Notes under the pieces: model-generated
The model's database searches: none
What the model was told of the DNA's origin: nothing
The model's input: only the letters and a program-made list of their open reading frames with translations
Virus record (IMG/VR): IMGVR_UViG_3300008050_000019
Direction: 5' to 3' (one strand)
Source: a virus
DNA: 49,320 bases
Position numbers and translations under genes: made by a program
Shown here: piece by piece, positions 5,701 to 42,312 of the stretch
Position numbering within the stretch: position 1 is the stretch's first letter
Layout: each line of letters begins with the position of its first letter

Positions 5701-5704
5701 TGAA

Positions 5705-5791: not shown

Positions 5792-5794
5792 TTA

Positions 5795-5873: not shown

Positions 5874-5878
5874 ATAAA

Positions 5879-6079: not shown

Positions 6080-6150
6080 TGCGGATCCCAGACTTGCACT
6101 GGGCCCTGTGGCTTATGAGGCCACCGAGGTACCTATATCCTCCAATCCGC
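6080..6150 (-). tRNA. tRNA-Met-like (anticodon CAT), non-canonical T loop TGCAAGT
   Basis: acceptor GCGGAT/ATCCGC, anticodon arm GTGGC-CTCATAA-GCCAC, T arm CCCAG-TGCAAGT-CTGGG. Confidence 0.5.
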
Positions 6151-6219
6151 GTCAATGGTTTTAATGAGATCCGAAAACTCCATATTGGTCCCGCCGATGA
6201 TTAAAAAAGCTAAACCCAC

Positions 6220-6591: not shown

Positions 6592-6650
6592 AACAAACCC
6601 TCCGTATTATACAGAAATGCTTAGCGTTTGCTATATACTATTAACTAAAA

Positions 6651-6725
6651 TCCCCCCACCAGGACTCGAACCTGGAACCTCCGGCTTAAAAGGCCATTGC
6701 ACTAATCCAGTTGTGCTATGGAGGG
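6651..6725 (-). tRNA. tRNA-Lys (anticodon TTT)
   Basis: acceptor CCCTCCA/TGGGGGG, D arm GCAC/GTGC, anticodon loop CTTTTAA, T arm CCAGG-TTCGAGT-CCTGG. Confidence 0.7.
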
Positions 6726-6726
6726 T

Positions 6727-6799
6727 TTATAAGGGAAGAATTCGAATCTTCATTTCCCGCTTTAATCGTGCGGGTGTACTACCATTATACTACCTTATG
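6727..6799 (-). tRNA. tRNA-like with C1-A72 mismatch and 9-nt anticodon loop ACGATTAAA; identity ambiguous
   Basis: T arm GAAGA-TTCGAAT-TCTTC, D arm GTAT/GTAC, anticodon stem CCCGC/GCGGG around a 9-nt loop containing TTA. Confidence 0.4.
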
Positions 6800-6952
6800 G
6801 TTGTCATATGAAGAGTTTATACTTCAATTCCTCAATCCAAATGAGGCGCGATATTTTCACCAATATGACGATTTTAGATATTAACCTAGGCTATGAACCT
6901 ATATCCAATGCAACACTGCTATTGCAAAGGCCGGAATATATTTAATATCTAA

Positions 6953-7027
6953 TGGGATTACCGGGATTCGAACCCGGATCTGTCCGATTAAGAGTCGGCT
7001 ATATTAACACATTAATACTATAATCCC
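6953..7027 (-). tRNA. tRNA-Lys (anticodon CTT)
   Basis: perfect acceptor GGGATTA/TAATCCC, anticodon loop CTCTTAA, T arm CCGGG-TTCGAAT-CCCGG. Confidence 0.7.
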
Positions 7028-7078
7028 AATTTACATTTTATTCAATTTTCAAAGAAACAAATCACAAAATGATTTGAA

Positions 7079-7163
7079 TGAGGAACCTGAGGATCGAACT
7101 CAGTTGCACCCTAAGGCGACCAGGTTTACAGCCTGGGTTATCTCCATAATAATCTAGTTCCCC
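7079..7163 (-). tRNA. tRNA-Tyr (anticodon GTA), second diverged copy, class II
   Basis: acceptor GGGGAAC/GTTCCTC, anticodon arm CCAGG-CTGTAAA-CCTGG, long variable arm, T arm CTGAG-TTCGATC-CTCAG. Confidence 0.55.
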
Positions 7164-7252
7164 GTAATCATGAATGGCTTTAATCATCCAGTGTGTAGTT
7201 ATTATAACTCATTAGTTATCAAATTACAACATTTTTAAATTTTATTTTCATA

Positions 7253-7324
7253 AGATTGAGATGAGACTCGAACTCACAATCTTGGTTTTGCAGACCAAAG
7301 CCTTAACCATTTAGCTACTCAATC
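7253..7324 (-). tRNA. tRNA-Cys (anticodon GCA)
   Basis: perfect acceptor GATTGAG/CTCAATC, anticodon arm TTGGT-CTGCAAA-ACCAA, T arm GTGAG-TTCGAGT-CTCAT. Confidence 0.8.
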
Positions 7325-7326
7325 GA

Positions 7327-7398
7327 TGGTGCTACCTGGTAACGCTCCAGGATCTTCTGTTTATCAGACAGACGTTCATACTTCCCTACTATAGCACC
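7327..7398 (-). tRNA. tRNA-Ile-like (anticodon GAT), non-canonical T loop AGCGTTA
   Basis: same body as 1087..1158 (acceptor GGTGCTA/TAGCACC, T arm CCTGG-AGCGTTA-CCAGG) but anticodon arm TCTGT-CTGATAA-ACAGA. Confidence 0.5.
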
Positions 7399-7402
7399 AA
7401 AA

Positions 7403-7474
7403 CGCTTTTTAGTGGATTCGAACCACTACATCTGGTACTTCACACCAGCATGCTACCGTTAACATCAAAAAAGC
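7403..7474 (-). tRNA. tRNA-Phe (anticodon GAA)
   Basis: perfect acceptor GCTTTTT/AAAAAGC, D arm ATGT/GCAT, anticodon arm CTGGT-GTGAAGT-ACCAG, T arm AGTGG-TTCGAAT-CCACT. Confidence 0.8.
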
Positions 7475-7724
7475 ATAAATCCTATTACAACTAACTAGCC
7501 TTTTGGGCCTGTAATTGGCACCCGTTCTCTCAGCGGGTGTTATATTAACGAATGTTAATACATCCTCTAGCCAGCAGCTTAATTAAAAGCAGGATATTTC
7601 TCGCAATCAAGGTCTAGCGATGGTTTCGACCCATCTTCTGCACCCACTGCAGGTGTGCCGTAATACTTCTATACGAGCTAGACTTATTTCTTTTATATTT
7701 TCTTCCAATTTTTATGTAACATTA

Positions 7725-7793
7725 TGGAGAAGACGGGTAACGCTCCCGCTCATTCCGGTGTGCAAAACCAGATGCTATCCTTATAGCTTCCCC
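7725..7793 (-). tRNA. tRNA-Ala-like (anticodon TGC), short D arm, T loop AGCGTTA
   Basis: acceptor GGGGAAG/CTTCTCC, anticodon arm CTGGT-TTTGCAC-ACCGG, T arm GCGGG-AGCGTTA-CCCGT. Confidence 0.5.
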
Positions 7794-7797
7794 AATA

Positions 7798-7871
7798 AGC
7801 AAGTAAGGGGATTCGAACCCCTACATCAAGAGTGGAAATCTTGCATGCTATCCATTAAACATCATACTCGC
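7798..7871 (-). tRNA. tRNA-Gly (anticodon TCC)
   Basis: acceptor GCGAGTA/TACTTGC, D arm ATGT/GCAT, anticodon arm CAAGA-TTTCCAC-TCTTG, T arm AGGGG-TTCGAAT-CCCCT, U73. Confidence 0.8.
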
Positions 7872-7968
7872 ATACTCGATTTTGTTTTAACCTCATCATG
7901 TTAAATAATTATATAACATTTTTTTTCATTTAACACTTAATTTAAAACAAAATTGAAATTCTTATTCT

Positions 7969-8154
7969 TTAATCAGCAAACTTGTGAATGTTCCCACCCA
8001 CCTTCGTAACCATATTCTGAATGAACTCAGCACGCCCCAGAGCCCGCCAAGCAATTTTTAGTTCATCATCAATACGCTGGGTTGCATCCTTGATGGTTTC
8101 CTTTAACTTTCTAAAAGACTCTTCCATCTCTTGGTCAGTTTGATCATTACTCAT
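7969..8154 (-). CDS. hypothetical small protein (61 aa)
   Basis: six-frame ORF between tRNA genes. Confidence 0.35.
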   Translation of the reverse strand: MSNDQTDQEMEESFRKLKETIKDATQRIDDELKIAWRALGRAEFIQNMVTKVGGNIHKFAD

Positions 8155-8201
8155 AATTTATTTTATCACCTATAATATCCAATGACATATTTTATTTTTA
8201 A

Positions 8202-8288
8202 CGGAAGGCAGAAGGATTGAACTCCATCCACTTTTAAGAACCCACTGATTAGCAAACAGCGACCAGAACCAATCTGGTATTACCTTCC
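8202..8288 (-). tRNA. tRNA-Ser (anticodon GCT), class II
   Basis: acceptor GGAAGGT/GCCTTCC, D arm CCAG-ATTGGTT-CTGG, anticodon loop TTGCTAA, long variable arm. Confidence 0.65.
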
Positions 8289-8293
8289 AAAAG

Positions 8294-8407
8294 TTACGTT
8301 ACCAGGAGTCGAACCTGGCTTGTCAACCAGACACCAGATGAAAACATCTTGAATGGATTCGAACCACTATTACTCGCGCGCAGAGTATATACCGACTTAC
8401 TAACGTA
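8294..8407 (-). tRNA. irregular or nested tRNA-like locus (two T-arm signatures inside one perfect 7-bp acceptor pairing)
   Basis: TACGTTA (8401..8407) pairs perfectly with TAACGTA next to T arm CCAGG-TTCGACT-CCTGG (8302..8318); a second T arm AGTGG-TTCGAAT-CCATT lies between. Confidence 0.3.
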
Positions 8408-8413
8408 ACCAGA

Positions 8414-8486
8414 GGTACTCGAAGGGGATTGAACCCTCATCGTTCGGACCACAGCCGAAAGCTCTAACCATTGAGCTACGAGCACC
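8414..8486 (-). tRNA. tRNA-His (anticodon GTG) with genome-encoded G-1
   Basis: acceptor GTGCTCG/CGAGTAC preceded by G, D arm GCTC/GAGC, anticodon arm TTCGG-CTGTGGT-CCGAA, T arm GAGGG-TTCAATC-CCCTT. Confidence 0.8.
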
Positions 8487-8491
8487 ATAAA

Positions 8492-8563
8492 AGCCTGCGA
8501 GAGGAATTCAACCCCCATTTCTTGATTACAAAACAAGAGTAATAAGCATTATACTACACAGGC
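8492..8563 (-). tRNA. tRNA-Thr (anticodon TGT)
   Basis: acceptor GCCTGTG/CGCAGGC, anticodon loop TTTGTAA, T loop TTGAATT (G56). Confidence 0.6.
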
Positions 8564-18919: not shown

Positions 18920-19090
18920 CCTGTACAGTCTCTGATTTTCCACTGTCGAAAATAAGTGAATTTAGCTGTATCTATTTCCTCGAGCCTGTGTTACTATATT
19001 CTTACCAGGTCAGGAATGGCACTGGGAAAACGGAGTTTAAATAATTATAAAATAATCCTGTTCTTTGAACCGAGATTGTGTTATAATATT
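18920..19090 (+). repeat. ~170-bp direct repeat, copy 1 (promoter-bearing leader of GC-rich paralog 1)
   Basis: cctgtaca..ccactgtcgaaaa.aagtgaa...ctgtatctattt...taccaggtcaggaatggcactg..gagtttaaataattataaaataatcctgttcttt..gagatt.tgttataat recurs at 21470..21640. Confidence 0.7.
19077..19087 (+). promoter_or_regulatory. extended -10 promoter TGTGTTATAAT
   Basis: matches the window-wide consensus TGTGTTATAATATTCTTA; 56 nt upstream of ATG 19144. Confidence 0.55.
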
Positions 19091-19143
19091 CTTACCAACT
19101 GGGGAGCTTAAAACCTTCCCCCCAAACAGAAAGCAGAGTCACT

Positions 19144-19671
19144 ATGACCTTCAAATTTACCGTCGGACAAACCTACAACGTCATCGACGAGAAGGGAGCC
19201 CGCGTCAACAAGGCCGGTGTGGTCGCCATCTCCGAACGGGAGAACAAGGGTGTCCTTACTCCTGACATGGACCTTGAGTACATCGGGAAGGCCGCCAAGG
19301 ACACGCCCCAGGCCGGACACCACATGTTCAAATTGCCCGAGGGTGTTGAAATCCTGGGTGAGACCACGATCGCCGGAGTCCGAAACCACTTCGACTTCAA
19401 TGCGGCTTACGTTCAAGCCAAGAAAAATATCCCGACCAAGGGGACGCTGCAGGAGCGTGCCGACGAGGCCACTCGCCAAGCGGAAGCAGCCAGCGACCAT
19501 GCCGAGAAGCTGCAAAGGATTGCTGCAGACCTGAGGGTCGAAATCCTCTGCCTCCAAGCGGATGAGCAGAAGGCTGCGGAGGCTGCGGCTAAGACACAGG
19601 CCGAAATCGACGCCTCCTGGGATGAGGCTGAGGCACAAGCCTCAGGGTACACCACCAACGCCCCAGAGTAA
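19144..19671 (+). CDS. GC3-rich paralog family member 1 (175 aa, N-terminal conserved domain and Ala/Glu-rich C-terminus)
   Basis: GxTYNVI..KGA...PDMDL.Y.GK...HH.F.LPEGV..LG..TI.G..NHFD shared with 21873..22409 and 40570..41214; GC-rich codons in an AT-rich genome. Confidence 0.7.
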   Translation: MTFKFTVGQTYNVIDEKGARVNKAGVVAISERENKGVLTPDMDLEYIGKAAKDTPQAGHHMFKLPEGVEILGETTIAGVRNHFDFNAAYVQAKKNIPTKGTLQERADEATRQAEAASDHAEKLQRIAADLRVEILCLQADEQKAAEAAAKTQAEIDASWDEAEAQASGYTTNAPE

Positions 19672-21469: not shown

Positions 21470-21640
21470 CCTGTACAAGGCACGAAATTCCACTGTCGAA
21501 AAAGAGTGAAAATAACTGTATCTATTTTTCTGAGCCTATGATACCATATTCATACCAGGTCAGGAATGGCACTGAGTAAATACTGAGTTTAAATAATTAT
21601 AAAATAATCCTGTTCTTTTGAATGAGATTATGTTATAATT
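21470..21640 (+). repeat. ~170-bp direct repeat, copy 2 (leader of GC-rich paralog 2)
   Basis: see 18920..19090. Confidence 0.7.
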
Positions 21641-21810
21641 GAAAGGACGGAGGAGATAGAAACGGTACGGAAATAAAAATTAATATATAAATAAAAAAAC
21701 CTTTTAAAATAACCGAGTTTATGTTATAATAATCTTACGGAAACGGAGCAAAAACAAAAAACTTAAATATTAAATATAAATAAAACAAACCTTTTCTCGG
21801 TACCGAAACC

Positions 21811-21820
21811 GTGTTATAAT
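21811..21820 (+). promoter_or_regulatory. promoter GTGTTATAAT (last of four stacked promoter-like boxes 21530..21830)
   Basis: boxes ATGATACCATATTC, ATGTTATAATTG, ATGTTATAATAATC, GTGTTATAATAATC in tandem before ATG 21873. Confidence 0.5.
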
Positions 21821-21872
21821 AATCTAACAACGGGGACCTAATAAATCCTCCCTAACACAAAGGCAAATACAT

Positions 21873-22409
21873 ATGGCTATCTCACTCATCGTCGGCAACA
21901 CCTACAACGTCATTGGGGCGAAAGGGGCGTTTACCAACGCGCAGATTATGGTGGCGATTTCCGAGAACAAGCAGGTCGGCCTTGTCACCCCTGACATGGA
22001 CCTGAAATACCTCGGGAAGCTTGCGGGCGGCAAGAGCGGCGGGAAGCATCACACCTTCCAACTCCCCGAGGGAGTAACCGTGCTGGGCAGCAACACCATC
22101 GTGGGACACCCGAACCACTTCGATGTGGCAGCAGGGTACAACGCGAACAAGGTTGGGGCGACCAAAGGGACCCTCGCCGAGCAAATCGCCACGGCATCCC
22201 GCAATGTAGCGGAAGCCCAGGCTCACCTGGCACGAGCCCAAGGCCGCATGGCAGAACTGGAGCAGAAACGAGTCGAGACCGAAGCGGGCATCGAAAAGGC
22301 AGCCGCCGAAAAGGCGAAAGCCGGGCCCTGCACCGTCTTCACCCCCGAGGAGATCGCTGGGTGGGAGCAAATGGAAGCTGAGCGAAAGGCCGCCGCTTCC
22401 GCTGAGTAA
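21873..22409 (+). CDS. GC3-rich paralog family member 2 (178 aa)
   Basis: conserved N-terminal domain shared with 19144..19671; Ala/Glu/Lys-rich C-terminus. Confidence 0.7.
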   Translation: MAISLIVGNTYNVIGAKGAFTNAQIMVAISENKQVGLVTPDMDLKYLGKLAGGKSGGKHHTFQLPEGVTVLGSNTIVGHPNHFDVAAGYNANKVGATKGTLAEQIATASRNVAEAQAHLARAQGRMAELEQKRVETEAGIEKAAAEKAKAGPCTVFTPEEIAGWEQMEAERKAAASAE

Positions 22410-23148: not shown

Positions 23149-23322
23149 CATGATCACTCAGCTAAAAACTTTTTTCATAAATCCCCTTGTGCTGGCTTTG
23201 CTGGTCATCTTTCCGGCTAGCCTGTACGGGGGTAAGGGAGTTTATTTCTTGCTTAGCCTTCTGTAGCCCAGCATTCCCTCTCTAATAATGTTGTAATATT
23301 TTTGTATCTTTCGGGGTATGGC

Positions 23323-23333
23323 TGTATTACAAT
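23323..23333 (+). promoter_or_regulatory. promoter core TGTATTACAAT of the conserved intergenic module
   Basis: module TCTCTTTCTAATAATGTTGTAATATTCTTGTATC...GTATTACAATATTTTTAGGAATTGG occurs before at least 9 genes. Confidence 0.5.
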
Positions 23334-23357
23334 ATTCTTGAGGATGGAAACAACAAC

Positions 23358-23813
23358 ATGATTTATGGAACTGATGATTGCGCAACCCCTCCCGAAACGC
23401 TGACCGGCCGGATTCAAGTCCAGGTCGAGTTCCGCAATGGCAAATGGCTGATCTCCATCGCTGATGAGGACTGTATTAAAAAGCAGTATGAGTCTGACCA
23501 CATGCCGAAACTTACTGATCTCAGACCAACAAGGCCTCCCTCGAAGTCCAGTGCAGTGCTTGAATCGACGAAGACTCCCTCGGATCTTGAAGGGATGAGG
23601 GAATTCGTCATTGAATTCCAGCCGCCGGTTGGAAACATCACACATCTCAAATGCGTCGAGGGAGATGCTGCAGGCTACGGGTGGCACGTCAAGATTGATG
23701 AAGAATGGATTAACGGATACATAGTCGACCGAACCCACCTTAAAGAAGTCTGGGACGTCGCCGGAGCATTCTTCGAAAAGATGGGTGTCTACAACACTCC
23801 CGCTTTAGACTGA
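23358..23813 (+). CDS. hypothetical protein (151 aa)
   Basis: module promoter plus GAGGATGG SD before ATG. Confidence 0.55.
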   Translation: MIYGTDDCATPPETLTGRIQVQVEFRNGKWLISIADEDCIKKQYESDHMPKLTDLRPTRPPSKSSAVLESTKTPSDLEGMREFVIEFQPPVGNITHLKCVEGDAAGYGWHVKIDEEWINGYIVDRTHLKEVWDVAGAFFEKMGVYNTPALD

Positions 23814-23814
23814 C

Positions 23815-23862
23815 TCCCCATTCTCCTCGTTCTCCCCACCCTCCTCGTTCTCCCCACCCTCC
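23815..23862 (+). repeat. tandem 21-nt repeat (2.3 copies) CCTCCTCGTTCTCCCCACCCT
   Basis: direct tandem copies immediately after stop of 23358..23813. Confidence 0.6.
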
Positions 23863-23942
23863 TCATTCTCTTCATGATATAATATCGTAATTTTTCTGTA
23901 TTCTCTGTGATATGATCGTATTATAATATTTTTAGGAAAAAA

Positions 23943-24284
23943 ATGGAAACCGAATTTGAATACCCTGACTGGGAAAAAATTAGGGCTAAACACCCAAACA
24001 TGATCATCGGATCAACTTTTTATCATGGCTGTGGTGAATTTATCGCTTCCATCAACGGTCAGCGCTTTTGGAAGGGAGGGGTAGAAGAGGGCGACGGCAA
24101 CACATTGGTTGAAAAAGCGATATCAACGTACGATATGGTTCAGCGGAGAATGGAAGCTGCTGGAGTCACACATTGCCTCGTTGATGAAGAAGATCCCAGC
24201 ATGGAACTTCGCCCCATCCAAAAATTCTTCGATGAAGATCGAGAGCGCGCCGCAGATGTCTATTACGACATCTGCGACTACTGA
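23943..24284 (+). CDS. hypothetical protein (113 aa)
   Basis: module promoter then ATG. Confidence 0.55.
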   Translation: METEFEYPDWEKIRAKHPNMIIGSTFYHGCGEFIASINGQRFWKGGVEEGDGNTLVEKAISTYDMVQRRMEAAGVTHCLVDEEDPSMELRPIQKFFDEDRERAADVYYDICDY

Positions 24285-24356
24285 TTTCTCTTTCTAATAA
24301 TGTTGTAATACTCTTGTGTCCTCAGGGATATGATTGTATTACAATATTTTTAGGAA

Positions 24357-24371
24357 TTGGGAATTTCCCAA
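24357..24371 (+). promoter_or_regulatory. operator-like palindrome TTGGGAATTTCCCAA at or just after predicted transcription start
   Basis: perfect 7-bp arms; related palindromes in the same module position at 26491, 27895, 28255, 40510. Confidence 0.5.
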
Positions 24372-24393
24372 CATCCAAACAAGGAGCAAAATT

Positions 24394-25122
24394 ATGGGCG
24401 CAGGATCTAGAGGTCGTCAAGCGGGCGACGCAGACGAGTTGGATGAATCAATCACAACGGCATACGCTGATGGTGATGGGACGATGCAGTCAGTTCTTGA
24501 AGCGCTAAGCGTTTTCGACATTCACCATAATCTCTCAATCCTCCGTGGTTATCTTGATGTCGTCCCCCTGACCGGCATGTCCATTGCGGAGAGTAGAGAG
24601 ATCGAAGAGCTTGTGGATGACCTGATGGATAGCCTCAAGTGCTTTCTCGAAACTGGAGAATACTATCCAGGCGCTCGTGCAAACCGGGCCGACCAGTTGC
24701 GCGAAGAAGCTGATTTTCAAGCAGAAAAACTTTGGGACGAGACCATCGCGCAAGTTGAGGTTCTTGCTGAGGGTGAAATAGAGCTTGAACAGCCAAAACC
24801 AACAACCATCTTCGTTCTCACATACGACGTTGTAGGCGAGGACGAGCTTCTAGGCTTCTTCAGCACAAGGGCTCTGGCTTGGAAGTTCGCCGAGGATTGT
24901 GCACAAGAAGATTGGGAATCGGAGCAGGAATATGGCACTGACGAAACTTTCGAAGAGTTTATGATCGATTGGAGACGTGCAGTCGTTCATGAGTGTGCTT
25001 TGGATCAATGCTTCAAGCCGTATAAATCCGGAGATCCGGACCGCAACCTCAGCCTCCGCCTTCGTGATCAAGACTGGGGCAACGCCAAAGAGACCACATA
25101 CGAGAGCTTTAAAAACAGCTAG
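24394..25122 (+). CDS. hypothetical acidic protein (242 aa)
   Basis: AAGGAG SD 8 nt before ATG; ORF-track N-extension is translated promoter. Confidence 0.6.
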   Translation: MGAGSRGRQAGDADELDESITTAYADGDGTMQSVLEALSVFDIHHNLSILRGYLDVVPLTGMSIAESREIEELVDDLMDSLKCFLETGEYYPGARANRADQLREEADFQAEKLWDETIAQVEVLAEGEIELEQPKPTTIFVLTYDVVGEDELLGFFSTRALAWKFAEDCAQEDWESEQEYGTDETFEEFMIDWRRAVVHECALDQCFKPYKSGDPDRNLSLRLRDQDWGNAKETTYESFKNS

Positions 25123-25195
25123 CCTGCCATTCTCTTTCTAATAATGTTGTAATATTCTTGTATCTTCCGAGAATATTCGTGATATAATATTATTA

Positions 25196-25618
25196 ATGAA
25201 AAAAACTGGGTATGCCACATTTACATATAGATGGTTCAGTCAAGCTGAACCATCAGTAACACAAGAGCTTCGGGACAAAATCAATGCAGCCTTTGATGAA
25301 GGCGGCTATGGTGCGGGAATGAAGTACTGGCATGATAACCGTCCCTCAGATGAAGTCCTAGATGCAGTCTGGGCATCCCTTACCGATGTCAGGGCCGAGA
25401 TTGAAATGGCTGCACAGGAAGTCGGCTTTAGTCCAAAGAGTCAAAAGGCTTTTGATCGTATCATGAAAGAAGGACCCCATCGAGTCCCGCTCAAAAGTAA
25501 CAGGCTCAAAAAGATGGCAGATAGGCTTTCACCCGTTGCTTCGCACATCGCAAATTCACTATGTGATTATGAAGCACAGGTTTTTTGTGGAGCTTTGCGA
25601 GGTCATGACGAAGGATAA
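25196..25618 (+). CDS. hypothetical protein (140 aa), leaderless
   Basis: GTGATATAATATTATTA-ATG: -10 ends 6 nt before ATG. Confidence 0.55.
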   Translation: MKKTGYATFTYRWFSQAEPSVTQELRDKINAAFDEGGYGAGMKYWHDNRPSDEVLDAVWASLTDVRAEIEMAAQEVGFSPKSQKAFDRIMKEGPHRVPLKSNRLKKMADRLSPVASHIANSLCDYEAQVFCGALRGHDEG

Positions 25619-25712
25619 ACTCCTCGTTAAATTCTCTTTCTAATAATGTTGTAATATTCTTGTATCTTCCGAGAATATTCGTGATATAATATTATTAGGA
25701 GTTAAACACTAC

Positions 25713-26123
25713 ATGGCAAGCTTACCCAACCAAGACTACCACCGACGTAATGCTGCACCGATCCCAGCAGAAATCTGGGCCACCGATAAGTGGCAAGAGC
25801 AGAATGCTGCCAAATTCAAATCACGTAGAGATGCAGTGGAACTTTACGCTGCCACGTTCAAGCTTGTTCTGAATGTTGATCCCATGGAGGAGTGGTACGA
25901 AGACATCGGCCTGCATGACTACAGTGCATCAGAATTCGGCACCTCTCATGAACCCCCAGTAATCTACTTGGCGATTCGTGATGTTGTTGAAGAAGAGTTG
26001 GAGGAGCTTCCTGAGTATGAAGTTGAGGGCATCTTCATCACCGACTCGACCGGGACCCAGATGAGAACGCTCCAGTTTGTCAAGAATTGCTGCAGCTTCG
26101 GAATTGCTGCACATAATAAGTAA
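25713..26123 (+). CDS. hypothetical protein (136 aa)
   Basis: AGGAG SD then ATG. Confidence 0.6.
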   Translation: MASLPNQDYHRRNAAPIPAEIWATDKWQEQNAAKFKSRRDAVELYAATFKLVLNVDPMEEWYEDIGLHDYSASEFGTSHEPPVIYLAIRDVVEEELEELPEYEVEGIFITDSTGTQMRTLQFVKNCCSFGIAAHNK

Positions 26124-26172
26124 ACAATTTAGTATTCCCTGTATCCTAATCGTGTTACCATGTTCTTAGGAA

Positions 26173-26418
26173 ATGACACAAACTCATATAATTTTATCTT
26201 ATGAAGATCTGAGTCTTCGTTTATGTGATCAGGGCACCCGTGATGACCTGATCAAGCTTTTGAATGAAGGGTGGAAACCTGAGCCTGGGCCGTTCTCCCT
26301 TTGGGACATCACCGATGACGGCCACATCTATAAGGTAAATACGTACCTAGGCAAAATCGTGATTGCCCCATTACCTAAAGGTGGTAACTCCCTTGATGTC
26401 ACGTCGTTAATTGACTAA
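26173..26418 (+). CDS. hypothetical protein (81 aa)
   Basis: six-frame ORF. Confidence 0.5.
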   Translation: MTQTHIILSYEDLSLRLCDQGTRDDLIKLLNEGWKPEPGPFSLWDITDDGHIYKVNTYLGKIVIAPLPKGGNSLDVTSLID

Positions 26419-26526
26419 ATTCTCTTTCTAATAATGTTGTAATACTTTTGTATCTTTCGGGACATGATCGTATTATAATATTTTTAGGAATTGGGAATTT
26501 CCCAACATCCCTTTACAGGAGTTAAT

Positions 26527-26931
26527 ATGGAAGCACCCTTCGACTGGGGCACGATCAGTGTCAACTTTCCTTCAATTGCCAACCTGCTTCTTGAGCAAGT
26601 CGAGGAGTTTGGTGATGAAGGTGAGGAAGAGTTCACCCCAATCTACCTGGACGACGACGAGTATCTTGGTGAACCCCCGGGTGATGCTGAAGCTTATCTT
26701 GAGGGCGACACCCTTATGATTGTGCACCCCACTGAGCTCGATGCTTACCTCATTTGCATCAACCCGTCCGGAATGGTGTACCACCCAGGACCAACCTTCT
26801 ACACATATCGGAACGGCAAGCTTCACTATGAATCTCAAATGGACAATAATTCCACCATCGACCTCTTCGAGGGTGATGAAGCCTTCACGGGCGACCAAGG
26901 CCGGTCGTATATGGCTGCTTCAACAACATGA
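26527..26931 (+). CDS. hypothetical acidic protein (134 aa)
   Basis: CAGGAG SD then ATG; module operator TTGGGAATTTCCCAA at 26491..26505. Confidence 0.55.
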   Translation: MEAPFDWGTISVNFPSIANLLLEQVEEFGDEGEEEFTPIYLDDDEYLGEPPGDAEAYLEGDTLMIVHPTELDAYLICINPSGMVYHPGPTFYTYRNGKLHYESQMDNNSTIDLFEGDEAFTGDQGRSYMAASTT

Positions 26932-27177
26932 AGTGCAGTGGCGAGTTTAGGGAATCGACTGGGTGGATTTATACCAAATGGGACGCTGAGAACACTGCAC
27001 CAAACACTTGCGCTCGGAAGCCCTATGGCCAGAGGAGAAAAAGAGGGAAATAATCCCCCTAATTTCCTTCTCTAATAATGTTGTAATATTCTTGTGTCCT
27101 CAGGGATATGATTGTATTACAATATTCTTAGGAATTGGGAATCACTGAGGTCACCCTCCATTGCAAAGCAGGTAAGT

Positions 27178-27486
27178 ATGTCAGAATGTATCAGAAGCCC
27201 CCACAAAAGTGGGAACCTCTCTATCAAGGCTGTCGATGAAGGGGGCGAAACCTTCGGGAACATGCTCCTTAGGTTCATATGCTATGAGCTTTCGACATGG
27301 CACCTCATGCCGAAGGACTATGAGGCTTTGAGAGTGTTCTTAGAACAAACACATGATGATTGCGCATGGATTGACTATAAGGGTACTCTGGATGCTCCTG
27401 GACCCGTGAGCATCACCATTTATGTGTGGAATAGCTGGCTACATGATGGACTCCCGAAGACGCCAAGGTCACTTATCCTCCGGTAA
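27178..27486 (+). CDS. hypothetical protein (102 aa)
   Basis: module promoter; GCAGGTAAG then ATG. Confidence 0.45.
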   Translation: MSECIRSPHKSGNLSIKAVDEGGETFGNMLLRFICYELSTWHLMPKDYEALRVFLEQTHDDCAWIDYKGTLDAPGPVSITIYVWNSWLHDGLPKTPRSLILR

Positions 27487-27545
27487 GCCAGGAAAAAAGA
27501 GGAAAATAATCCTCAATCGTATCCTATCTGTGTTATAATATTCCT

Positions 27546-27830
27546 ATGGAAAATGCGGATATTGAATCCAAACTCATCTCTGATGAACTCCTTCGCCTCT
27601 CCACCCTCGATACCTTCCGAACCGTCGCATTTCGGGTCAAGGGAATTGACCCGGGTGAATATGGGGGTGGGCACGAACTTCAAGCAATCTGTTTTGAGTT
27701 TCTGGAAGAGTCGAACTCCAAGGACTTCATGGGTCTGACGGACGCCGATTTGGACGAAGGGCCAGGAATCTGGTACAGACTGAATGATGATCTCACCACC
27801 TTCATGCAAGAATTTAGCTTCAAAAGCTGA
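27546..27830 (+). CDS. hypothetical acidic protein (94 aa), leaderless
   Basis: TGTGTTATAATATTCCT-ATG. Confidence 0.55.
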   Translation: MENADIESKLISDELLRLSTLDTFRTVAFRVKGIDPGEYGGGHELQAICFEFLEESNSKDFMGLTDADLDEGPGIWYRLNDDLTTFMQEFSFKS

Positions 27831-27937
27831 TTCCCTTCTCTAATAATGCTGTAATATTCTTGTATCTTCCGGGATATGATTGTATTACAATATTTTTAGG
27901 AATTGGAATTAATCCAATATCCAAACAAGGAGTTTCT

Positions 27938-28189
27938 ATGACTAGCAAAGTGTATCTCGTTATTCGTGAAGATGAGTTCGGTGACTCAGTCAAGATTGTC
28001 CCAGAAACCTATCAAATCGTAGGGTTTACTCACTCAAAAGAGTTGGCGGAAGCCGCAGCAAACAAGCTCAATCACACTGGGCGCGATGGATGTGGTCATG
28101 ACATCGACTTCAGTGATCCCTATTGGGGAGATGAGTTCTGTGATGGTGATATAACTGTCTGGACAGTCGAGGAAGTTGACGCACTCTAA
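27938..28189 (+). CDS. hypothetical protein (83 aa)
   Basis: CAAGGAG SD then ATG. Confidence 0.55.
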   Translation: MTSKVYLVIREDEFGDSVKIVPETYQIVGFTHSKELAEAAANKLNHTGRDGCGHDIDFSDPYWGDEFCDGDITVWTVEEVDAL

Positions 28190-28287
28190 TCTCATTTTCT
28201 AAGAATATTGTAATATTTTTGTATCCTTCGGGGTATGATCGTATTACAATATTTTTAGGAATTGGAAATTCCGAATAAGGAGCAACT

Positions 28288-28527
28288 ATGAGAAGCCCAC
28301 ATAGACTATCCGTGAAGGCAGCGGCAGAATTCTTCGAAGAACCAATTTGGCATAACTACGCCAATGGCAGCCTGATGTTGACCGAAGGTCGCAAGTATTT
28401 TGACTACTGCGCATCTCCCGCCCTAAAGTTCAAGGTGAGACTGGTGTCACCACATGATGTGACAGCGATCGTTTATCAGGGCAACTGCCTCTTTGAGGCA
28501 CTGCATGCATATAATGAGTTAGACTAA
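28288..28527 (+). CDS. hypothetical protein (79 aa)
   Basis: AATAAGGAG SD then ATG. Confidence 0.55.
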   Translation: MRSPHRLSVKAAAEFFEEPIWHNYANGSLMLTEGRKYFDYCASPALKFKVRLVSPHDVTAIVYQGNCLFEALHAYNELD

Positions 28528-28530
28528 TTA

Positions 28531-28589
28531 GTCGAAACGGGTTTAACCCGTCACTTGGGAGTTCCTTCCCAGGTCTGATGAGACAGGAG
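28531..28589 (+). ncRNA. hammerhead ribozyme, type II (HH1); predicted cleavage after C28552
   Basis: GUC-GAAA-[ACGGG-uuuaa-CCCGU]-C|A-[CUUGGGA-guuccu-UCCCAGG]-U-CUGAUGA-GAC-AGGAG; 3' AGGA can pair loop-I UCCU. Confidence 0.8.
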
Positions 28590-28594
28590 CATAG

Positions 28595-29488: not shown

Positions 29489-30040
29489 TCACTCCCTGTG
29501 AACAGCACGAAAAGTAGCCGTTAACCCTTCCTCTTTATTCCTGGCGAGACACCACAGCCTATACTCAGAAACCGTCATTGGCTGTCCATTGATGCTGTAA
29601 CTCTCCGCCCGAGTCTTTGTTCTACGTGACCAACTTCTGTATGAAGGTCCAGTCTCGCAGTGTTCTCTTCCTTCGAACATATGCTGTTCTGACCATACAC
29701 TCCCGTCTTCATCATATACTATCACAGCCGGTCCATCTTCTCTATGGTATAGACCATGAGTATAATACTTATCTGTGAGCTTAATTCCTTGTCTCGTCAT
29801 GCAGTATGCAGGCCCATCCGTTCTATGATAGATGCCTAGCGGTCCCTTAAAATCAGCTATCGAAGGATTAAAGAGCCTCTGATCACCTGCAAAACCCACC
29901 CTATGTTGATAAATTTGATAAATGCTGTTCTGTGAAAGTGTACTATCTATCATCACAAAGTGTGCAGAGACTTCATAACCCTCAAGCTTTCTTACAATCT
30001 TGAGAGTATTCTCGTCATAGATACTAGACGTCCATTCCAT
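29489..30040 (-). CDS. HREDGPA / MORN-like repeat protein
   Basis: YHRTDGPAY, YHREDGPAV repeats; leaderless TGTGATATTATAAAAT-ATG. Confidence 0.6.
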   Translation of the reverse strand: MEWTSSIYDENTLKIVRKLEGYEVSAHFVMIDSTLSQNSIYQIYQHRVGFAGDQRLFNPSIADFKGPLGIYHRTDGPAYCMTRQGIKLTDKYYTHGLYHREDGPAVIVYDEDGSVWSEQHMFEGREHCETGPSYRSWSRRTKTRAESYSINGQPMTVSEYRLWCLARNKEEGLTATFRAVHRE

Positions 30041-30106
30041 ATTTTATAATATCACATCTAGCGAGCTCCTACAACATATTTTACTCACGCTCGCCGGCGC
30101 AAAAAG

Positions 30107-30433
30107 TTATCTTTTAAAAGTTGATTCTAAGCCCTTTTTGCAGCCTCTAACAAGGCAATGTAGCCTGAATATTTCGATTGACAGCACCACTCCCTCTTGA
30201 TACCAGATCTGATAATAAACCTCACCTGTGTGGTAATATGAGATGTATGCTGGCCCATCGTCTCTGTGTATTAAGCCATTTACATACCAGCGCTCGTAGT
30301 TAATGTTGCCATTTGGGTAATAAGCGATAACTGCTGGCTTATCTTTCCTATGTGGTCTGCAGTTTTGATACCAGTATTCTGAGCTAATTTTGCCGTTTGA
30401 ATAATAATCAATTATTGATTCAGCACCATCCAT
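30107..30433 (-). CDS. HREDGPA / MORN-like repeat protein with conserved C-terminal tail
   Basis: WYxNGxxHRDDGPA repeats; tail FRLHCLVRGCKKGLESTFKR; leaderless TGTGATATTATAAACTG-ATG. Confidence 0.65.
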   Translation of the reverse strand: MDGAESIIDYYSNGKISSEYWYQNCRPHRKDKPAVIAYYPNGNINYERWYVNGLIHRDDGPAYISYYHTGEVYYQIWYQEGVVLSIEIFRLHCLVRGCKKGLESTFKR

Positions 30434-30640
30434 CAGTTTATAATATCACATCTGATGAACTTTTGCAACATATTTTACTCACACTCGCCGGCGCAAAAAG
30501 TTATCTTTTTTTGAAAAAAAGGGTTATAAGAGCACATTATCATGAACGGTAAAAAATCATTAAAGTTGCAAAAGCTGTATTAAATGAGACAGGAATGTCA
30601 TATAATATTTTAAGGGACAGGAAAATTATAATGAGCAAGC

Positions 30641-30985
30641 TTAATCATCACGCCAATCTTCGATATCGTATATCCCGTACGTATCTTTCAAGGGTTGTTC
30701 TTTACCTGTCATTAGCAGGTAAACACGATACAGTTCTATTGGTAGTTCCTCTCCATGTAAATAAAAGATAGCGTTTTTTCTTAGTGAGTTGCTATGAGCA
30801 AAAACAACCGCTGGACCATCTTCTCTGTGCGTGATACAAGAAGCATCACGATAATGCACCAAAATAAGCTCGCCATAATCGTCTTTTACTTTTCTTAGAA
30901 ACCCACCATTAGGTAAGGAAATTCTGCTAATCATATTGCACGCTTCATATTTGATAATATCACATCTGGTGAACTCTTGCAACAT
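30641..30985 (-). CDS. HREDGPA / MORN-like repeat protein
   Basis: THREDGPAVVF; tail LYRVYLLMTGKEQPLKDTY; leaderless TGTGATATTATCAAAT-ATG. Confidence 0.55.
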   Translation of the reverse strand: MLQEFTRCDIIKYEACNMISRISLPNGGFLRKVKDDYGELILVHYRDASCITHREDGPAVVFAHSNSLRKNAIFYLHGEELPIELYRVYLLMTGKEQPLKDTYGIYDIEDWRDD

Positions 30986-31089
30986 ATTTTACTCGCATCC
31001 ACCCCGGGGCAAGTATACCGCTAACTGTTCTTATTTTGTGTCAAATGTTCCTAATTCGTGGTATAATTTATATAGAAATGAGGAACATA

Positions 31090-33671: not shown

Positions 33672-34247
33672 ATGAGCGCATCTAGAAGAGACACTCAAGT
33701 AAGCAGATTAAAGAAAATCCTCCCGGGAGTACTTCAGACGAAGGGTATAATGTGCTTCATCCATGCTTATGATGAAGGCGGAATGAACCGAGCCTGGGAA
33801 AATGTTGATACAGAAGACAAGCAGGCATTCATGGCTTTCTGTGAAAGCATCATGGATGAAGAGCTAGAGTACTTGGCCGCCTTTCTTGGTCATGGTGATG
33901 AAAGCCTAAGTAGCCTATTCTCTGATTTCCTTGAAAAAATGGAGGTTCTATTTCAAATAGAATCAGACAAGGAGTATACAGAACAGCAAAACGCCCACAA
34001 CGAGTGGGTGAAAACTACCAGGACCTCGAACCAGGGGAAAGTCATTACTCGAGGTGATCGCGTCTTATCGGAATCTGGAATGACTGGTGTGGTCGTCGGG
34101 GTGGTTTCTGAGACGGCACAACACTTTGGGTCCATTAAAGTATGGAATGAAGACACCAAGGGGTGTTGTGACCAATGCGGAGAAAATCCCACTCGCACAT
34201 TTTCATTTAGCAATTGGGAATCAGAATTAATAATTCTCGATAAGTAA
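33672..34247 (+). CDS. hypothetical protein (191 aa) downstream of HH2
   Basis: AAGGAG SD overlaps ribozyme 3' tail; ATG 33672. Confidence 0.55.
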   Translation: MSASRRDTQVSRLKKILPGVLQTKGIMCFIHAYDEGGMNRAWENVDTEDKQAFMAFCESIMDEELEYLAAFLGHGDESLSSLFSDFLEKMEVLFQIESDKEYTEQQNAHNEWVKTTRTSNQGKVITRGDRVLSESGMTGVVVGVVSETAQHFGSIKVWNEDTKGCCDQCGENPTRTFSFSNWESELIILDK

Positions 34248-34329
34248 CATCCTTGTATCCTTCGTGTCCTTCTTGTATTAAAATATTTCAGGATTCGGGA
34301 ATCACCCAATCTTTTGAGATAGGATTCAT

Positions 34330-34392: not shown

Positions 34393-34483
34393 TGTTGGAA
34401 GCTGTCTTAAACTGAGTGGAACGCCGTATTGACGCTATTGGTGGCATGAGTTGCAGAGCATGTCCAATTTAAAATCGGCTGCA

Positions 34484-34540
34484 TTCGAAACGCCCTAAGG
34501 GCGTCATGTTGGGTGACCTCCAACGTCTGATGAGATAGGT
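34484..34540 (+). ncRNA. hammerhead ribozyme, type II (HH3); predicted cleavage after C34505
   Basis: GAAA-[ACGCCC-uaa-GGGCGU]-C|A then sequence identical to HH2 from stem I onward; stem III differs by compensatory changes. Confidence 0.75.
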
Positions 34541-34552
34541 CAAGGAGAAGTT

Positions 34553-40313: not shown

Positions 40314-40403
40314 ATGAAAGGCGGAATTAAAATGAAGAAAACCTGACGATCTTGACTTTAATAAATAAATGCAAAACTGGGAATTAAGAAACGGAAAGAA
40401 AAA

Positions 40404-40460
40404 GCCGAAACGCTGAGAAGCGTCTGCTAAGACTAACCCCTTGGCACTGATGAGGCAGGT
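40404..40460 (+). ncRNA. hammerhead ribozyme, type II (HH4); predicted cleavage after C40424
   Basis: GCC-GAAA-[CGCU-gaga-AGCG]-UC|U-[GCUAAG..UUGGC]-A-CUGAUGA-GGC-AGGU. Confidence 0.7.
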
Positions 40461-40569
40461 AAATAAATTAATTACCTTGTTTCAATTGAATTAAGAATGT
40501 AATAATATATTCTTACAAACGGGGATTGGAAATTCCCCCTCAACATTCAAAAGAAAGCAATAACCAATT

Positions 40570-41214: not shown

Positions 41215-41228
41215 GCCGAAAGGGCTAA

Positions 41229-41287
41229 GCCGAAACCCCCTCGGGGGTTATCCTAGGGTTACCTCCTAGGGTCTGATGAGGCAGGTT
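41229..41287 (+). ncRNA. hammerhead ribozyme, type II (HH5); predicted cleavage after GUU at 41249
   Basis: GCC-GAAA-[CCCCC-ucg-GGGGG]-UU|A-[UCCUAGGG-uuaccu-CCUAGGGU]-CUGAUGA-GGC-AGGU. Confidence 0.7.
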
Positions 41288-41309
41288 CCCTCCCTATTCT
41301 TAGGAAAAC

Positions 41310-41549: not shown

Positions 41550-41750
41550 ATGAGTAAAATGTACATTGTTGTTGACCAAACTACACCCAAAGATGTGGTG
41601 GCCTTAGCAACGGGTGACCAAATTGAAGCAGAAGAATATGCGGTCAAGTATGACCCAAGCCACTTCAACATGCGAATCATTTGCCTTTCACCAGGTGACA
41701 CCATCGTTCCAGGTGCTAATGAACGCTTCCCGGGTAAAGTAATTTTCTAA
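41550..41750 (+). CDS. hypothetical protein (66 aa)
   Basis: six-frame ORF. Confidence 0.45.
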   Translation: MSKMYIVVDQTTPKDVVALATGDQIEAEEYAVKYDPSHFNMRIICLSPGDTIVPGANERFPGKVIF

Positions 41751-41810
41751 GTCGAAACGGGCTTCGGCCCGTCGTTCTGGAATGACTCCCAGGGCCTGAT
41801 GAGACAAGTC
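41751..41810 (+). ncRNA. hammerhead ribozyme, type II (HH6); predicted cleavage after C41773
   Basis: GUC-GAAA-[CGGGC-uucg-GCCCG]-UC|G-[UUCUGG..CCAGGGC]-CUGAUGA-GAC-AAGUC; AAGUC pairs loop-I GACU. Confidence 0.8.
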
Positions 41811-41836
41811 TTAACCTTAAACAAAACGAGAACTTT

Positions 41837-42016: not shown

Positions 42017-42240
42017 AGCAGTCTAATTCAAGCGATTTCATCTTCTGGGCGGCTGCAGCAGCCACCATTGGGTCCGCTTGTTTATCAATCGGGTTTGTGT
42101 TAGGTAACCTTTGGTTAAGCCTAAGCTTCGGCGCAAGTGCATTGAAGGCTTTCACCAAAGGATGTGACAGAACGTACACCATTGAAAAATATGTCAGTGG
42201 TGATTGGTTCTGCGAAGCGAAAACCCCCTACACACGATAA
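42013..42240 (+). CDS. small predicted membrane protein (75 aa)
   Basis: two hydrophobic segments. Confidence 0.45.
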   Translation: MKQSNSSDFIFWAAAAATIGSACLSIGFVLGNLWLSLSFGASALKAFTKGCDRTYTIEKYVSGDWFCEAKTPYTR

Positions 42241-42301
42241 GTCGAAACGGGCTTCGGCCCGTCATTCTGGTCTAACCTCCAGAATCTGATGAGACAGGTT
42301 A
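42241..42301 (+). ncRNA. hammerhead ribozyme, type II (HH7); predicted cleavage after C42263
   Basis: GUC-GAAA-[CGGGC-uucg-GCCCG]-UC|A-[AUUCUGG-ucuaaccu-CCAGAAU]-CUGAUGA-GAC-AGGUUA; AGGUUA pairs loop-I UAACCU. Confidence 0.8.
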
Positions 42302-42312
42302 AAGGAAGCAAG

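Follow-up and report, generated by a model that had tools for sequence, protein, structure and literature searches.

Between 23.27 and 28.29 kb of the virus DNA analysed here (IMG/VR record IMGVR_UViG_3300008050_000019; the whole stretch of 49,320 nucleotides is called the window), nine co-oriented intergenic modules, M1 to M9, each end at the ATG of a called gene. The modules are probably promoter/stem-loop cassettes resembling the PeSLs of T4-like phages: each would start its own transcript and would terminate, attenuate or process RNA that reads through from the gene upstream. The ATGs downstream of the modules are located at 23358, 23943, 24394, 25196, 25713, 26527, 27178, 27938 and 28288, and all nine agree with the gene calls on six independent metagenome assemblies. 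A first-pass annotation of this DNA had described a repeated promoter module with a palindromic operator ahead of these genes. All nine modules that it listed were recovered, in one orientation and ending at those ATGs, and the shared consensus that it quoted is the MAFFT consensus of the nine copies.

Pairwise identity between modules is 65–95% over a 66-nt core. The copies had been called nearly identical, which is true of M3, M6, M7, M8 and M9, but M2 is an outlier (65–77% identity) and the right half of M4 and M5 differs from that of the other modules. The core sequence TAYAATATTNTTA occurs 32 times in the window against 1.3 occurrences expected, and none of 100 shuffles reached 32.

Module structure and RNA folding

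Each module is a large inverted repeat with arms of 17–27 nt that lie 24–26 nt apart, for example CTAATAATGTTGTAATA / TATTACAATATTTTTAG. The module as a whole is an imperfect palindrome of about 66 nt, a symmetry that had been overlooked in the first-pass annotation. This 66-nt dyad, in which the promoter lies, is the dominant symmetry and outweighs the 15-nt palindrome further downstream. A second, small dyad, GTATCC-TTCG-GGGTAT, is found within the spacer. As RNA, the module folds into one 28-bp hairpin made up of a 7-bp lower stem, a 1×1 mismatch, a 13-bp middle stem, a 2×2 internal loop and an 8-bp upper stem, closed by a UNCG-like tetraloop (UUCG, UCCG or UCAG). Eight of the nine modules have RNA folding z-scores between −3.5 and −7.9. 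In the alignment of the nine copies, 92% of the cells in the 28-pair structure are standard pairs, compared with 37–56% when the partners are slid by 1–3 columns, and the changes between copies in paired columns are mostly transitions between Watson-Crick and G·U pairs. The 28-pair structure is consistently present, and it is not proven by covariation.

All nine modules lie on the + strand. M1 (23279..23344; z −3.6 for the 66-nt dyad/hairpin) carries the −10 box TACAAT at 23328-23333 and a predicted transcription start (+1) at about 23340, ahead of ATG 23358 (151 amino acids [aa], isoelectric point [pI] 4.9). M2 (23873..23938) is the most diverged copy and has a weaker dyad with a z-score of −1.0, alone not significant; its −10 box TATAAT (23922-23927) and predicted +1 (about 23934) precede ATG 23943 (113 aa). 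The hairpin of M3 (24291..24356) has a z-score of −6.6, and the module contains TACAAT at 24340-24345, a predicted +1 at about 24352, a palindrome at 24357-24371 and the Shine-Dalgarno (SD) sequence AAGGAG before ATG 24394 (242 aa, pI 4.2). M4 (25135..25199; z −4.5) folds in a shifted register and has the extended −10 sequence TGATATAAT (hexamer 25183-25188); with the predicted +1 at about 25195, ATG 25196 (140 aa) would be nearly leaderless. M5 (25637..25701; z −4.0) is 100% identical to M4 over 67 nt, with the −10 hexamer at 25685-25690, the predicted +1 at about 25697 and ATG 25713 (136 aa). M6 (26425..26490; z −3.7) has TATAAT at 26474-26479, a predicted +1 at about 26486 and a palindrome at 26491-26505 ahead of ATG 26527 (134 aa, pI 4.05). 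M7 (27069..27134; z −3.9) has TACAAT at 27118-27123, a predicted +1 at about 27130 and a 5′ untranslated region (UTR) without the palindrome before ATG 27178 (102 aa). M8 (27837..27902; z −3.5) has TACAAT at 27886-27891, a predicted +1 at about 27898, a palindrome at 27903-27917 and ATG 27938 (83 aa). M9 (28196..28261) forms the most perfect hairpin (z −7.9), with TACAAT at 28245-28250, a predicted +1 at about 28257, a palindrome at 28264-28272 and ATG 28288 (79 aa).

The fold depends on the strand. The sense (+) RNA gave −16 to −31 kcal/mol in eight of the nine modules and −10.4 kcal/mol in M2, with 3–7 G·U pairs in each, and the antisense RNA gave −1.6 to −13.5 kcal/mol, about half of the sense value (M1, −20.0 vs −8.9; M3, −29.0 vs −13.5; M9, −30.9 vs −13.0 kcal/mol). 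With DNA parameters the fold is weak on both strands (−1.6 to −9.7 kcal/mol). About 10 paired columns have G·U on the + strand, that is C·A on the other strand, and 2 columns have the reverse. This bias towards the sense strand points to a role in sense RNA, i.e. in read-through from the upstream gene, and argues against a DNA cruciform or a symmetric protein site.

A DNA-level function of the dyad was weighed in two forms. A dimer or tetramer could bind the half-sites TTGTAATA ... TATTACAA, which flank the −35 region, and act by looping or occlusion, or supercoiling-driven extrusion of a cruciform could sequester or present the −10 box, as with a phage RNA polymerase (RNAP) of the N4 kind. 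The long imperfect palindrome of every module does have its centre between the −10 box and the upstream box, a spacer of 20 nt hints at the need for an accessory factor, and the inner 8-bp hairpin is superficially like the N4 early promoter hairpins. We nevertheless consider this reading improbable. The DNA fold is alike on both strands, whereas the sense RNA is 2–3 times as stable as the antisense RNA; the departures from symmetry are mostly of the G·T type on the + strand, which a symmetric dimer would not favour; and the same core stands without a left arm at about 14 sites, where it would still work as a promoter. The N4-type form also has to accommodate an inner stem of 8 bp with a 4-nt loop on a 20-bp outer stem, compared with 5–7 bp and a 3-nt loop in N4, and the largest open reading frame (ORF) of the window has 534 aa, so the window holds no giant virion RNAP (vRNAP) gene.

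The two arms of the RNA hairpin are related to the promoter in different ways. The 3′ arm holds the −10 box (TAYAAT), the ATT that follows and the predicted +1. On its minus strand, the 5′ arm reads TACAACATTATTA in 7 of the 9 modules, a promoter core in which C replaces the critical final T of the −10 box. This mirror −10 box is thus TACAAC (T-7 to C) in these seven modules; on the + strand the change is A to G, and a G·U pair is kept (column 18/61). In the simplest history, the 5′ arm would have arisen when the promoter was duplicated in inverted orientation; selection would then have favoured pairing in the sense RNA and disfavoured antisense initiation.

A functional divergent antisense promoter in the left arm was rejected for 8 of the 9 modules, in which the mirror −10 is TACAAC, TACAGC or TACGAT. 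A perfect mirror core, TACAATATTCTTA, is present on the minus strand of M9 only (28212-28200). It could drive antisense RNA across the gene at 27938-28189. A 53-aa ORF (28195-28034) begins 11 nt downstream of this mirror core and is probably spurious.

Rfam 15 contains no family for the module; the only match to a module was MIR1120 at chance level (21.8 bits against a gathering score of 86).

The −10/+1 core in a wider class of predicted promoters

The −10 hexamer of the modules is TAYAAT, in which T-12, A-11 and T-7 are invariant, and it is followed by ATT and then yTTA. About 19 additional sites, on both strands and within 18.99–39.5 kb, have this −10/+1 core, and most of them have no hairpin. 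The consensus of 19 non-module sites consists of an A-rich tract, GTATC, a spacer, TGTGT, TATAAT, ATT and CTTA. T-12, A-11, A-8 and T-7 are present in 19/19 of these sites, and the TG of an extended −10 region in 15–18 of them; in the modules, TGn is found in M4 and M5. The GTAT box lies exactly 20 nt from the −10 box in 10 of the 19 sites and 11 nt from it in 4. In the modules, TTGTAT(C) occurs 20 nt upstream of the −10 box in seven copies and TTGTGT at that place in the other two.

We predict that the module promoter has a −10 region of the bacterial sigma-70/sigma-A type; the form TRTG-n-TATAAT, also called the ‘−16’ form, is typical of sigma-A promoters. The GTATC box may be a displaced −35 element or a site for another factor. 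The claim of one sigma-70-type promoter class can therefore be kept in part: there is one class, with a canonical −10 box and frequent TGn/TRTG, but no −35 hexamer at 16–18 nt, and the upstream box lies at 20 nt. Two other assignments were tried and rejected. When TATTAC/TGTTAT, 3 nt further upstream, is taken as the true −10 box with a 17-nt spacer, position 2 is G in 15 of the 19 class sites; with TAYAAT, A-11 and T-7 are conserved throughout. A Bacteroidetes-type −33/−7 promoter (TTG...TAnnTTTG) fits poorly at TTTG, and strong AAGGAG SD sequences are present.

Elsewhere in the window, as well as in the two 10-kb flanks, the class motif (GTATC box plus TGTGTTATAATATTCTTA) does not rise above background. 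The block that contains the class (18990-39540) has a G+C content of 0.44–0.55 against 0.34–0.40 in its flanks, and it may be a separately regulated or separately acquired segment of the genome.

These properties could also mean that the promoters form a phage-specific class, in which a phage sigma factor or activator reads the GTATC box in an appropriation like that by MotA/AsiA. Such a factor would be compatible with the cassette function proposed here, and the box does lie at a fixed spacing of 20 or 11 nt, not 17 nt, within a block of about 20 kb. Canonical TTGCAA-N17-TATTAT promoters coexist with the class at 30.4-31.0 kb, which makes a distinct class plausible. We regard a phage factor as a rather unlikely alternative all the same, since the −10 region is of the textbook sigma-70/sigma-A kind, with TRTG-n-TATAAT, which is enough alone in many bacteria. 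Gene content was surveyed over about 66 kb, reaching up to 10 kb beyond window genes and mostly covered by Pfam records, and where these records exist there is no match to a sigma factor, MotA or AsiA. The only detectable relatives, phages of the PA5oct type, use the host RNAP with TTGAC/TATAATA promoters.

Start codons help to place the +1. The ATG begins exactly 7 nt after the −10 hexamer at 27546, 21038(−) and 21391(−), and 8 nt after it at 25196; therefore the +1 is likely the conserved A of yTTA. The genes at 27546, 21038(−) and 21391(−) are predicted to have leaderless mRNAs without an SD sequence, and the gene at 25196 a 1-nt leader. The corresponding −10 to start codon intervals are 27534-27548 (+), 21050-21036 (−), 21403-21389 (−) and 25183-25198 (+), and the same starts are called on independent assemblies.

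Two of the class promoters are extra, degenerate copies of the module that lack the left arm and lie within the array. The first (26130..26172, +) forms no hairpin and has a GTAT box and the −10 box TACCAT (26156-26161) before ATG 26173 (81 aa). The second (27519..27545, +) reads TGTGTTATAAT, with the hexamer at 27534-27539; ATG 27546 (94 aa) lies exactly at its predicted +1 and would be leaderless. A degenerate relic of a module was also observed outside the array at 34230-34310 (+; CCTTGTATCCTTCGTGTCC...GTATTAAAATATTTCAGGATTCGGGAATCACC). Its GTATCC-TTCG centre is preserved and its UTR begins much as in M7, and it has no left arm and no significant fold.

A second family of hairpin promoters, with unrelated arm sequence, is found at 19044..19087 (+). 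Here the 3′ arm of an AU-rich stem holds TGTTATAAT, with the −10 box at 19082-19087, and there is an inner mini-hairpin. A paralogue lies at 21594-21641, and the z-scores of the pair are −1.6 and −3.3. Since the same layout occurs in a pair unrelated in sequence to the modules, the architecture arose at least twice, which argues for its usefulness.

The regions around this pair, 18935-19143 and 21485-21872, are a duplicated regulatory region with tandem promoters, ahead of two paralogous genes (19144-19671 and 21873-22409, 44% identity). The duplicated region also holds a repeat pair at 21671/21760. A repeat of another kind, 84 nt long and 67–85% identical between copies, is located at 30032-30115, 30426-30509 and 30940-31023, upstream of three paralogous minus-strand genes (29489-30040, 30107-30433 and 30641-30985; blastp E-values of 1.5e-12 to 1e-3). 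A consensus promoter scan recognised canonical TTGCAA-N17-TGnTATTAT promoters in two of these copies (30.44-30.47 and 30.95-30.98 kb). In all three copies the ATG lies about 5 nt after the −10 box, and these genes also look leaderless.

Palindromes in the 5′ leaders

The palindrome that had been proposed as an operator is present at the places quoted: TTGGGAATTTCCCAA at 24357-24371 and 26491-26505, TTGGAATTAATCCAA at 27903-27917 and GGAAATTCC at 28264-28272. It had been ascribed to several modules, and it occurs in 4 of the 9 only (M3, M6, M8 and M9). M3 and M6 have identical palindromes, and the three variants differ in half-site and arm spacing (15, 15 and 9–14 nt). In these four modules the centre of the palindrome is 18–19 nt after the −10 box. 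The UTR of M7 begins like those of the palindrome modules and has lost the symmetry, and the leaders of M1, M2, M4 and M5 are short or absent. None of the approximately 19 other class promoters has the palindrome.

As RNA, the palindromes would form a hairpin from +2 of the predicted mRNA that leaves the SD sequence free (−4 to −9.6 kcal/mol); the z-scores of these hairpins are individually not significant. The big hairpin can become longer in read-through RNA, through pairing of the palindrome's 5′ half with the far-left flank of the module. A stem-loop at the extreme 5′ end is a known layout of mRNA stabilisers. A 5′ stem-loop that would stabilise the mRNA is more likely than a repressor site, although a repressor may act at about +12 of these four genes.

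The first-pass annotation had gone further and had proposed sigma-70 promoters co-repressed by a dimeric protein that binds the palindrome at about +12, with the downstream genes forming a regulon of the early or host-takeover type. The fixed place of the palindrome speaks for such a scheme, in that it resembles that of lac O1, as does the excess of the pattern GGRAWWTYCC, with 6 matches in the window against 1.07 expected. The palindrome cannot define the regulon, because it occurs in four of the nine modules, in three variants, and at none of the other promoters of the class. In addition, M7 shares the leader start of these modules without the symmetry, the same bases can be accounted for by the hairpin from +2, and over most of the approximately 66 kb the Pfam records show no helix-turn-helix or repressor family. 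There is accordingly little chance that co-repression explains the array.

Unrelated genes behind similar cassettes

The nine flanked genes had been described as coding for small, mostly acidic proteins with SD sequences, and this was confirmed: the proteins have 79–242 aa, seven of the nine have a pI of 4.05–4.9, and SD sequences are present. Their assignment to an early or host-takeover type is putative. The nine proteins are not paralogues of one another (best E-value 0.22), and none of them matched a PHROG or Pfam family. Near-identical cassettes before unrelated genes point to spread or homogenisation of the cassettes and not to tandem duplication of genes. In a four-gamete test on six modules, all four gametes were found in 45 of 78 informative site pairs, within 80 nt. 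M3 may serve as an example of the mosaics: its centre is as in M7, and its left-arm variant and UTR are as in M6. Such mosaic modules indicate recombination or gene conversion between cassettes. The cassettes would thus act as recombination substrates, with gene conversion keeping them alike before unrelated genes and favouring the shuffling of gene cassettes.

Spread of the modules could also be selfish, as in miniature inverted-repeat transposable elements (MITEs) or repetitive extragenic palindromic (REP) sequences that move by transposition and are promoter-like incidentally. Terminal inverted repeats, a length of about 66–100 nt and multiple near-identical intergenic copies are what such elements would show. 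This is very improbable here, since 9/9 modules are co-oriented with the genes and lie at a fixed distance from the start codons, and the right arm is the promoter core that is found without arms at about 19 sites. No further copies were found elsewhere in the window or flanks, in 185,579 GTDB species genomes or in IMG/VR, and the records for the 66 kb show no transposase nearby.

Hammerhead ribozymes and short hairpins

Rfam detected six type II hammerhead ribozymes (RF02276) that score 37.7–40.8 bits, above the gathering score of 37. They all lie between genes on the + strand, each just upstream of an SD sequence and an ATG (28530-28592, 34483-34544, 40403-40464, 41228-41290, 41750-41814 and 42240-42303). 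The one that follows the ninth gene (28530..28592, 39.6 bits) fills the gap between the stop at 28527 and ATG 28595, at the end of the array, in the place where a promoter module would stand. Where hammerheads flank single phage genes, the proposal has been that they divide long transcripts into mRNAs of one gene each (Perreault et al. 2011, PMC3088659). The arrangement in the window suggests that the hammerheads would self-cleave polycistronic phage RNA into single-gene mRNAs in the same manner. With six intergenic hammerheads, the phage appears to separate cistrons at the RNA level, which fits an RNA role of the module hairpin.

Within the array, an uncalled basic ORF of 41 aa (26928-27053, +) begins in an ATGA overlap with the stop of the gene 26527-26931. 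Similar short hairpins (AAAAAGAGGRAAATAATCCYC) follow this ORF (27036-27060) and the gene 27178-27486 (27490-27514). They are terminator-like on the minus strand only, where no gene lies.

Source of the DNA and search for relatives

Exact protein look-up placed the window at about 170–220 kb of k141_306648, a 308,593-bp metagenome contig in ENA. The source samples include ERZ27249009 and JGI 3300006923, 3300010150 and 3300037635. Five shorter marine contigs also carry the locus. Each was compared for the modules that it covers, one of them beginning after M1, and all are identical to the long contig across these modules. The contigs show no strain variation or cassette indels in these modules; an apparent difference between a 71-aa and a 79-aa gene is an alternative start call only.

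The source is probably an uncultured marine jumbo phage. Genes with a family in the window are those of a peptide deformylase, an SLT lytic transglycosylase, a phosphoribosyltransferase and a trypsin-like protease. The flanks contribute an RNA ligase, ClpS and GIY-YIG genes, and the remainder of the surveyed DNA consists mostly of small genes without a family match. No T4 core genes were found in it. The sole similarity to a cultured phage is that of the 534-aa window protein, which weakly matches a structural protein from jumbo phages of the PA5oct type. At 400-8563 (−), 26 tRNA genes form an array that serves most amino acids, with several isoacceptors for Leu, Arg, Val, Asn and Tyr, and is a typical jumbo-phage trait.

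Close relatives were not found by megablast against 50,697 phage records, two protein-seeded scans of IMG/VR gave no match, and a search of 5.8 billion proteins returned the query alone. The module pattern had 0 matches in the GTDB species genomes and 0 in IMG/VR. A short-motif scan of IMG/VR gave one locus, which was rejected as a chance match inside a coding region of an unrelated contig. Metagenomes scanned with the loose pattern TGTAATA-N24-30-TATTAYAATATT gave at least 120 unrelated single matches, and the full module was in none among the matches listed.

Proposed function

In the function proposed here, a transcript would start at the A of yTTA, about 7 nt after each TAYAAT, from a predicted promoter with the GTATC box at −38, a non-canonical position. 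The same core would drive about 19 other genes in the block of approximately 20 kb, several of them leaderless. RNA arriving from the upstream gene would fold into the 28-bp hairpin, and transcripts from the module's own promoter lack the 5′ arm and would not form it. The hairpin would most likely insulate the units, by attenuation, by RNase III-type cleavage and/or by capping the 3′ end of the upstream mRNA against exonucleases. An RNase III substrate is an intercistronic double strand of at least about 20 bp with internal loops, and the stems of 7 + 13 + 8 bp with 1×1 and 2×2 loops have this geometry. In four of the nine modules, the new transcript would open with a small 5′-terminal hairpin before a free SD sequence.

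Several observations weigh against this function. On the promoter side, no −35 hexamer was found at 16–18 nt, a consensus promoter scan called 0/9 modules, and TG is absent from 7 of the 9; recognition by host sigma-70 unaided is uncertain because of the missing −35 hexamer and TG. A hairpin is not needed for promoter function, given that about 14 class promoters show no significant hairpin in a check that left out four minus-strand windows. On the hairpin side, M2 folds poorly, and covariation in the nine-copy alignment is not above the shuffle control, because the copies share ancestry and are too alike. The G·U asymmetry is based on about 10 columns vs 2. Intrinsic terminators have a G+C-rich stem followed by a U-tract; the module hairpin is AU-rich, its tail is UUUUUA in 5/9 modules and interrupted in 4/9, and a terminator scan called none of the nine. 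The searches of phage records, IMG/VR, proteins, GTDB and metagenomes yielded no diverged relatives for a test of conservation, and promoter activity, the +1 and the function of the hairpin were all deduced from sequence.

A more specific proposal, which we consider possible but tentative, is a self-insulating cassette in which one stretch of −10/+1 DNA would also serve as 3′ arm of the sense-RNA hairpin of about 66 nt. The inverted promoter duplication would have given rise to the 5′ arm, which the T-7 to C change would then have disabled as a promoter, and the exact start of the next transcript would be the point at which read-through RNA is cut or stopped. The promoters would then be a new class, with GTATC at −38 and a spacer of 20 or 11 nt, that needs a phage factor, and the hammerheads and these cassettes would be two devices that the phage could interchange to make single-gene mRNAs.

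If the modules work as cassettes, the PeSL type would extend beyond cultured T4-like phages to an apparently unrelated uncultured marine jumbo phage, and in a more extreme design, the promoter itself being one arm of an insulating hairpin. This would bear on the expression of long orphan-gene arrays, as independent units, in giant phages and on how such arrays are shuffled, the homogenised cassettes being portable recombination sites. It would also bear on synthetic biology, where compact promoter-plus-insulator parts could be used. The fixed 20-nt spacing of the box and the exact leaderless starts offer handles on the transcription machinery of the host or the phage. With the repressor-operon reading corrected, the class motif can be used for annotating transcription units in the phage genome.

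Comparison with known systems

The vRNAP promoters of phage N4 have a hairpin with a 5–7-bp stem and a 3-nt loop, which acts as extruded DNA. Common to both systems are a small hairpin just upstream of the start site and the association with promoters of small genes, early in N4 and putatively so here. The module fold is weak as DNA and strong only as sense RNA, its −10 box is bacterial, and no vRNAP gene was seen in the window.

The host-takeover module of Bacillus phage SPO1 and the early regions of T4 and T5 are dense in small genes, each or nearly each with its own strong, highly conserved early promoter and a strong SD sequence. The array is similar, in that each or nearly each of its small genes has its own predicted promoter and a strong SD sequence. 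The early promoters of those phages have a canonical −35 box at 17 nt and no long hairpins, and their genes have no homology to the module genes.

In the early genes of T7, the RNase III processing hairpins R0.3–R1.3 lie between genes. Like these, the module hairpins are intercistronic, comprise two or more helical turns with internal loops and separate small, putatively early genes; they would work in read-through RNA alone, and the 3′ stem left behind would stabilise the mRNA upstream. T7, however, transcribes its early genes from three shared upstream promoters; in the array, each module gene has its own predicted promoter within the hairpin. The modules have no sequence similarity to the T7 hairpins and no Rfam match, and the comparison is by structure alone. 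The logic of the phage hammerheads (PMC3088659) would be shared, in that a long transcript is divided into mRNAs of single genes. A ribozyme core is absent from the modules, which have a promoter of their own and would be an alternative solution.

The closest likeness is to the PeSLs, cassettes of about 100 bp with a promoter and a stem-loop between orphan ORFs (ORFans) in the hyperplastic regions of T4-like phages, known in the T4-like myoviruses RB49/phi1, T4/PST and KVP40/nt-1 (Arbiol et al. 2010, PMC2839356; Comeau et al. 2014, PMC4122927). Their stem-loop lies between the −35 and −10 boxes or overlaps the −10 box, their promoter and terminator activity has been measured, and they have a role in modular shuffling (PMC2839356, PMC4122927). 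The modules share with them an AT-rich upstream part, a sigma-70-like promoter, a stem-loop at −35/−10 or over −10 and usually an SD sequence and start codon, as well as tandem placement between small unrelated ORFans, a variable accessory region and a homogeneity from copy to copy that suggests recombination between elements. TTGTAT fits the nt-1 −35 consensus TTGYVH.

The PeSL features found in the modules are thus nine copies that end at an ATG, a sigma-70-like −10 box, a stem-loop over the promoter and an ORFan-rich setting. A −35 box (TTGACA, TTTACW or TTGYVH) at a spacing of about 17 nt was not found; the spacing from box to −10 is 20 nt in the modules, and no T4-like ancestry is demonstrable for the phage that carries them. 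The stem-loop of PeSLs is a short stem of a G-run and a C-run, whereas that of the modules has 28 bp over about 66 nt, is AU-rich and ends in a UNCG-type tetraloop. The module hairpin encloses the promoter completely, from the upstream box to +5, and the 5′ arm is a disabled mirror of −10/+1. The activities of PeSLs have been measured, while those of the modules are predicted from the nucleotide sequence. PeSLs are also linked to indels or replacements between close relatives and to the formation of mini-circles; the mosaic copies of the module are an indirect pointer in that direction. We classify the modules as PeSL-like and not as proven PeSLs, because most features are shared, the 17-nt spacing is not, and the hairpin is far larger and includes the whole promoter. 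The concept of a joined promoter and stem-loop is known; what is unusual here is that the promoter is an arm of the hairpin, with a disabled mirror −10 and an odd box spacing. The setting is unusual too, an orphan marine jumbo phage that also appears to use hammerheads and leaderless starts.

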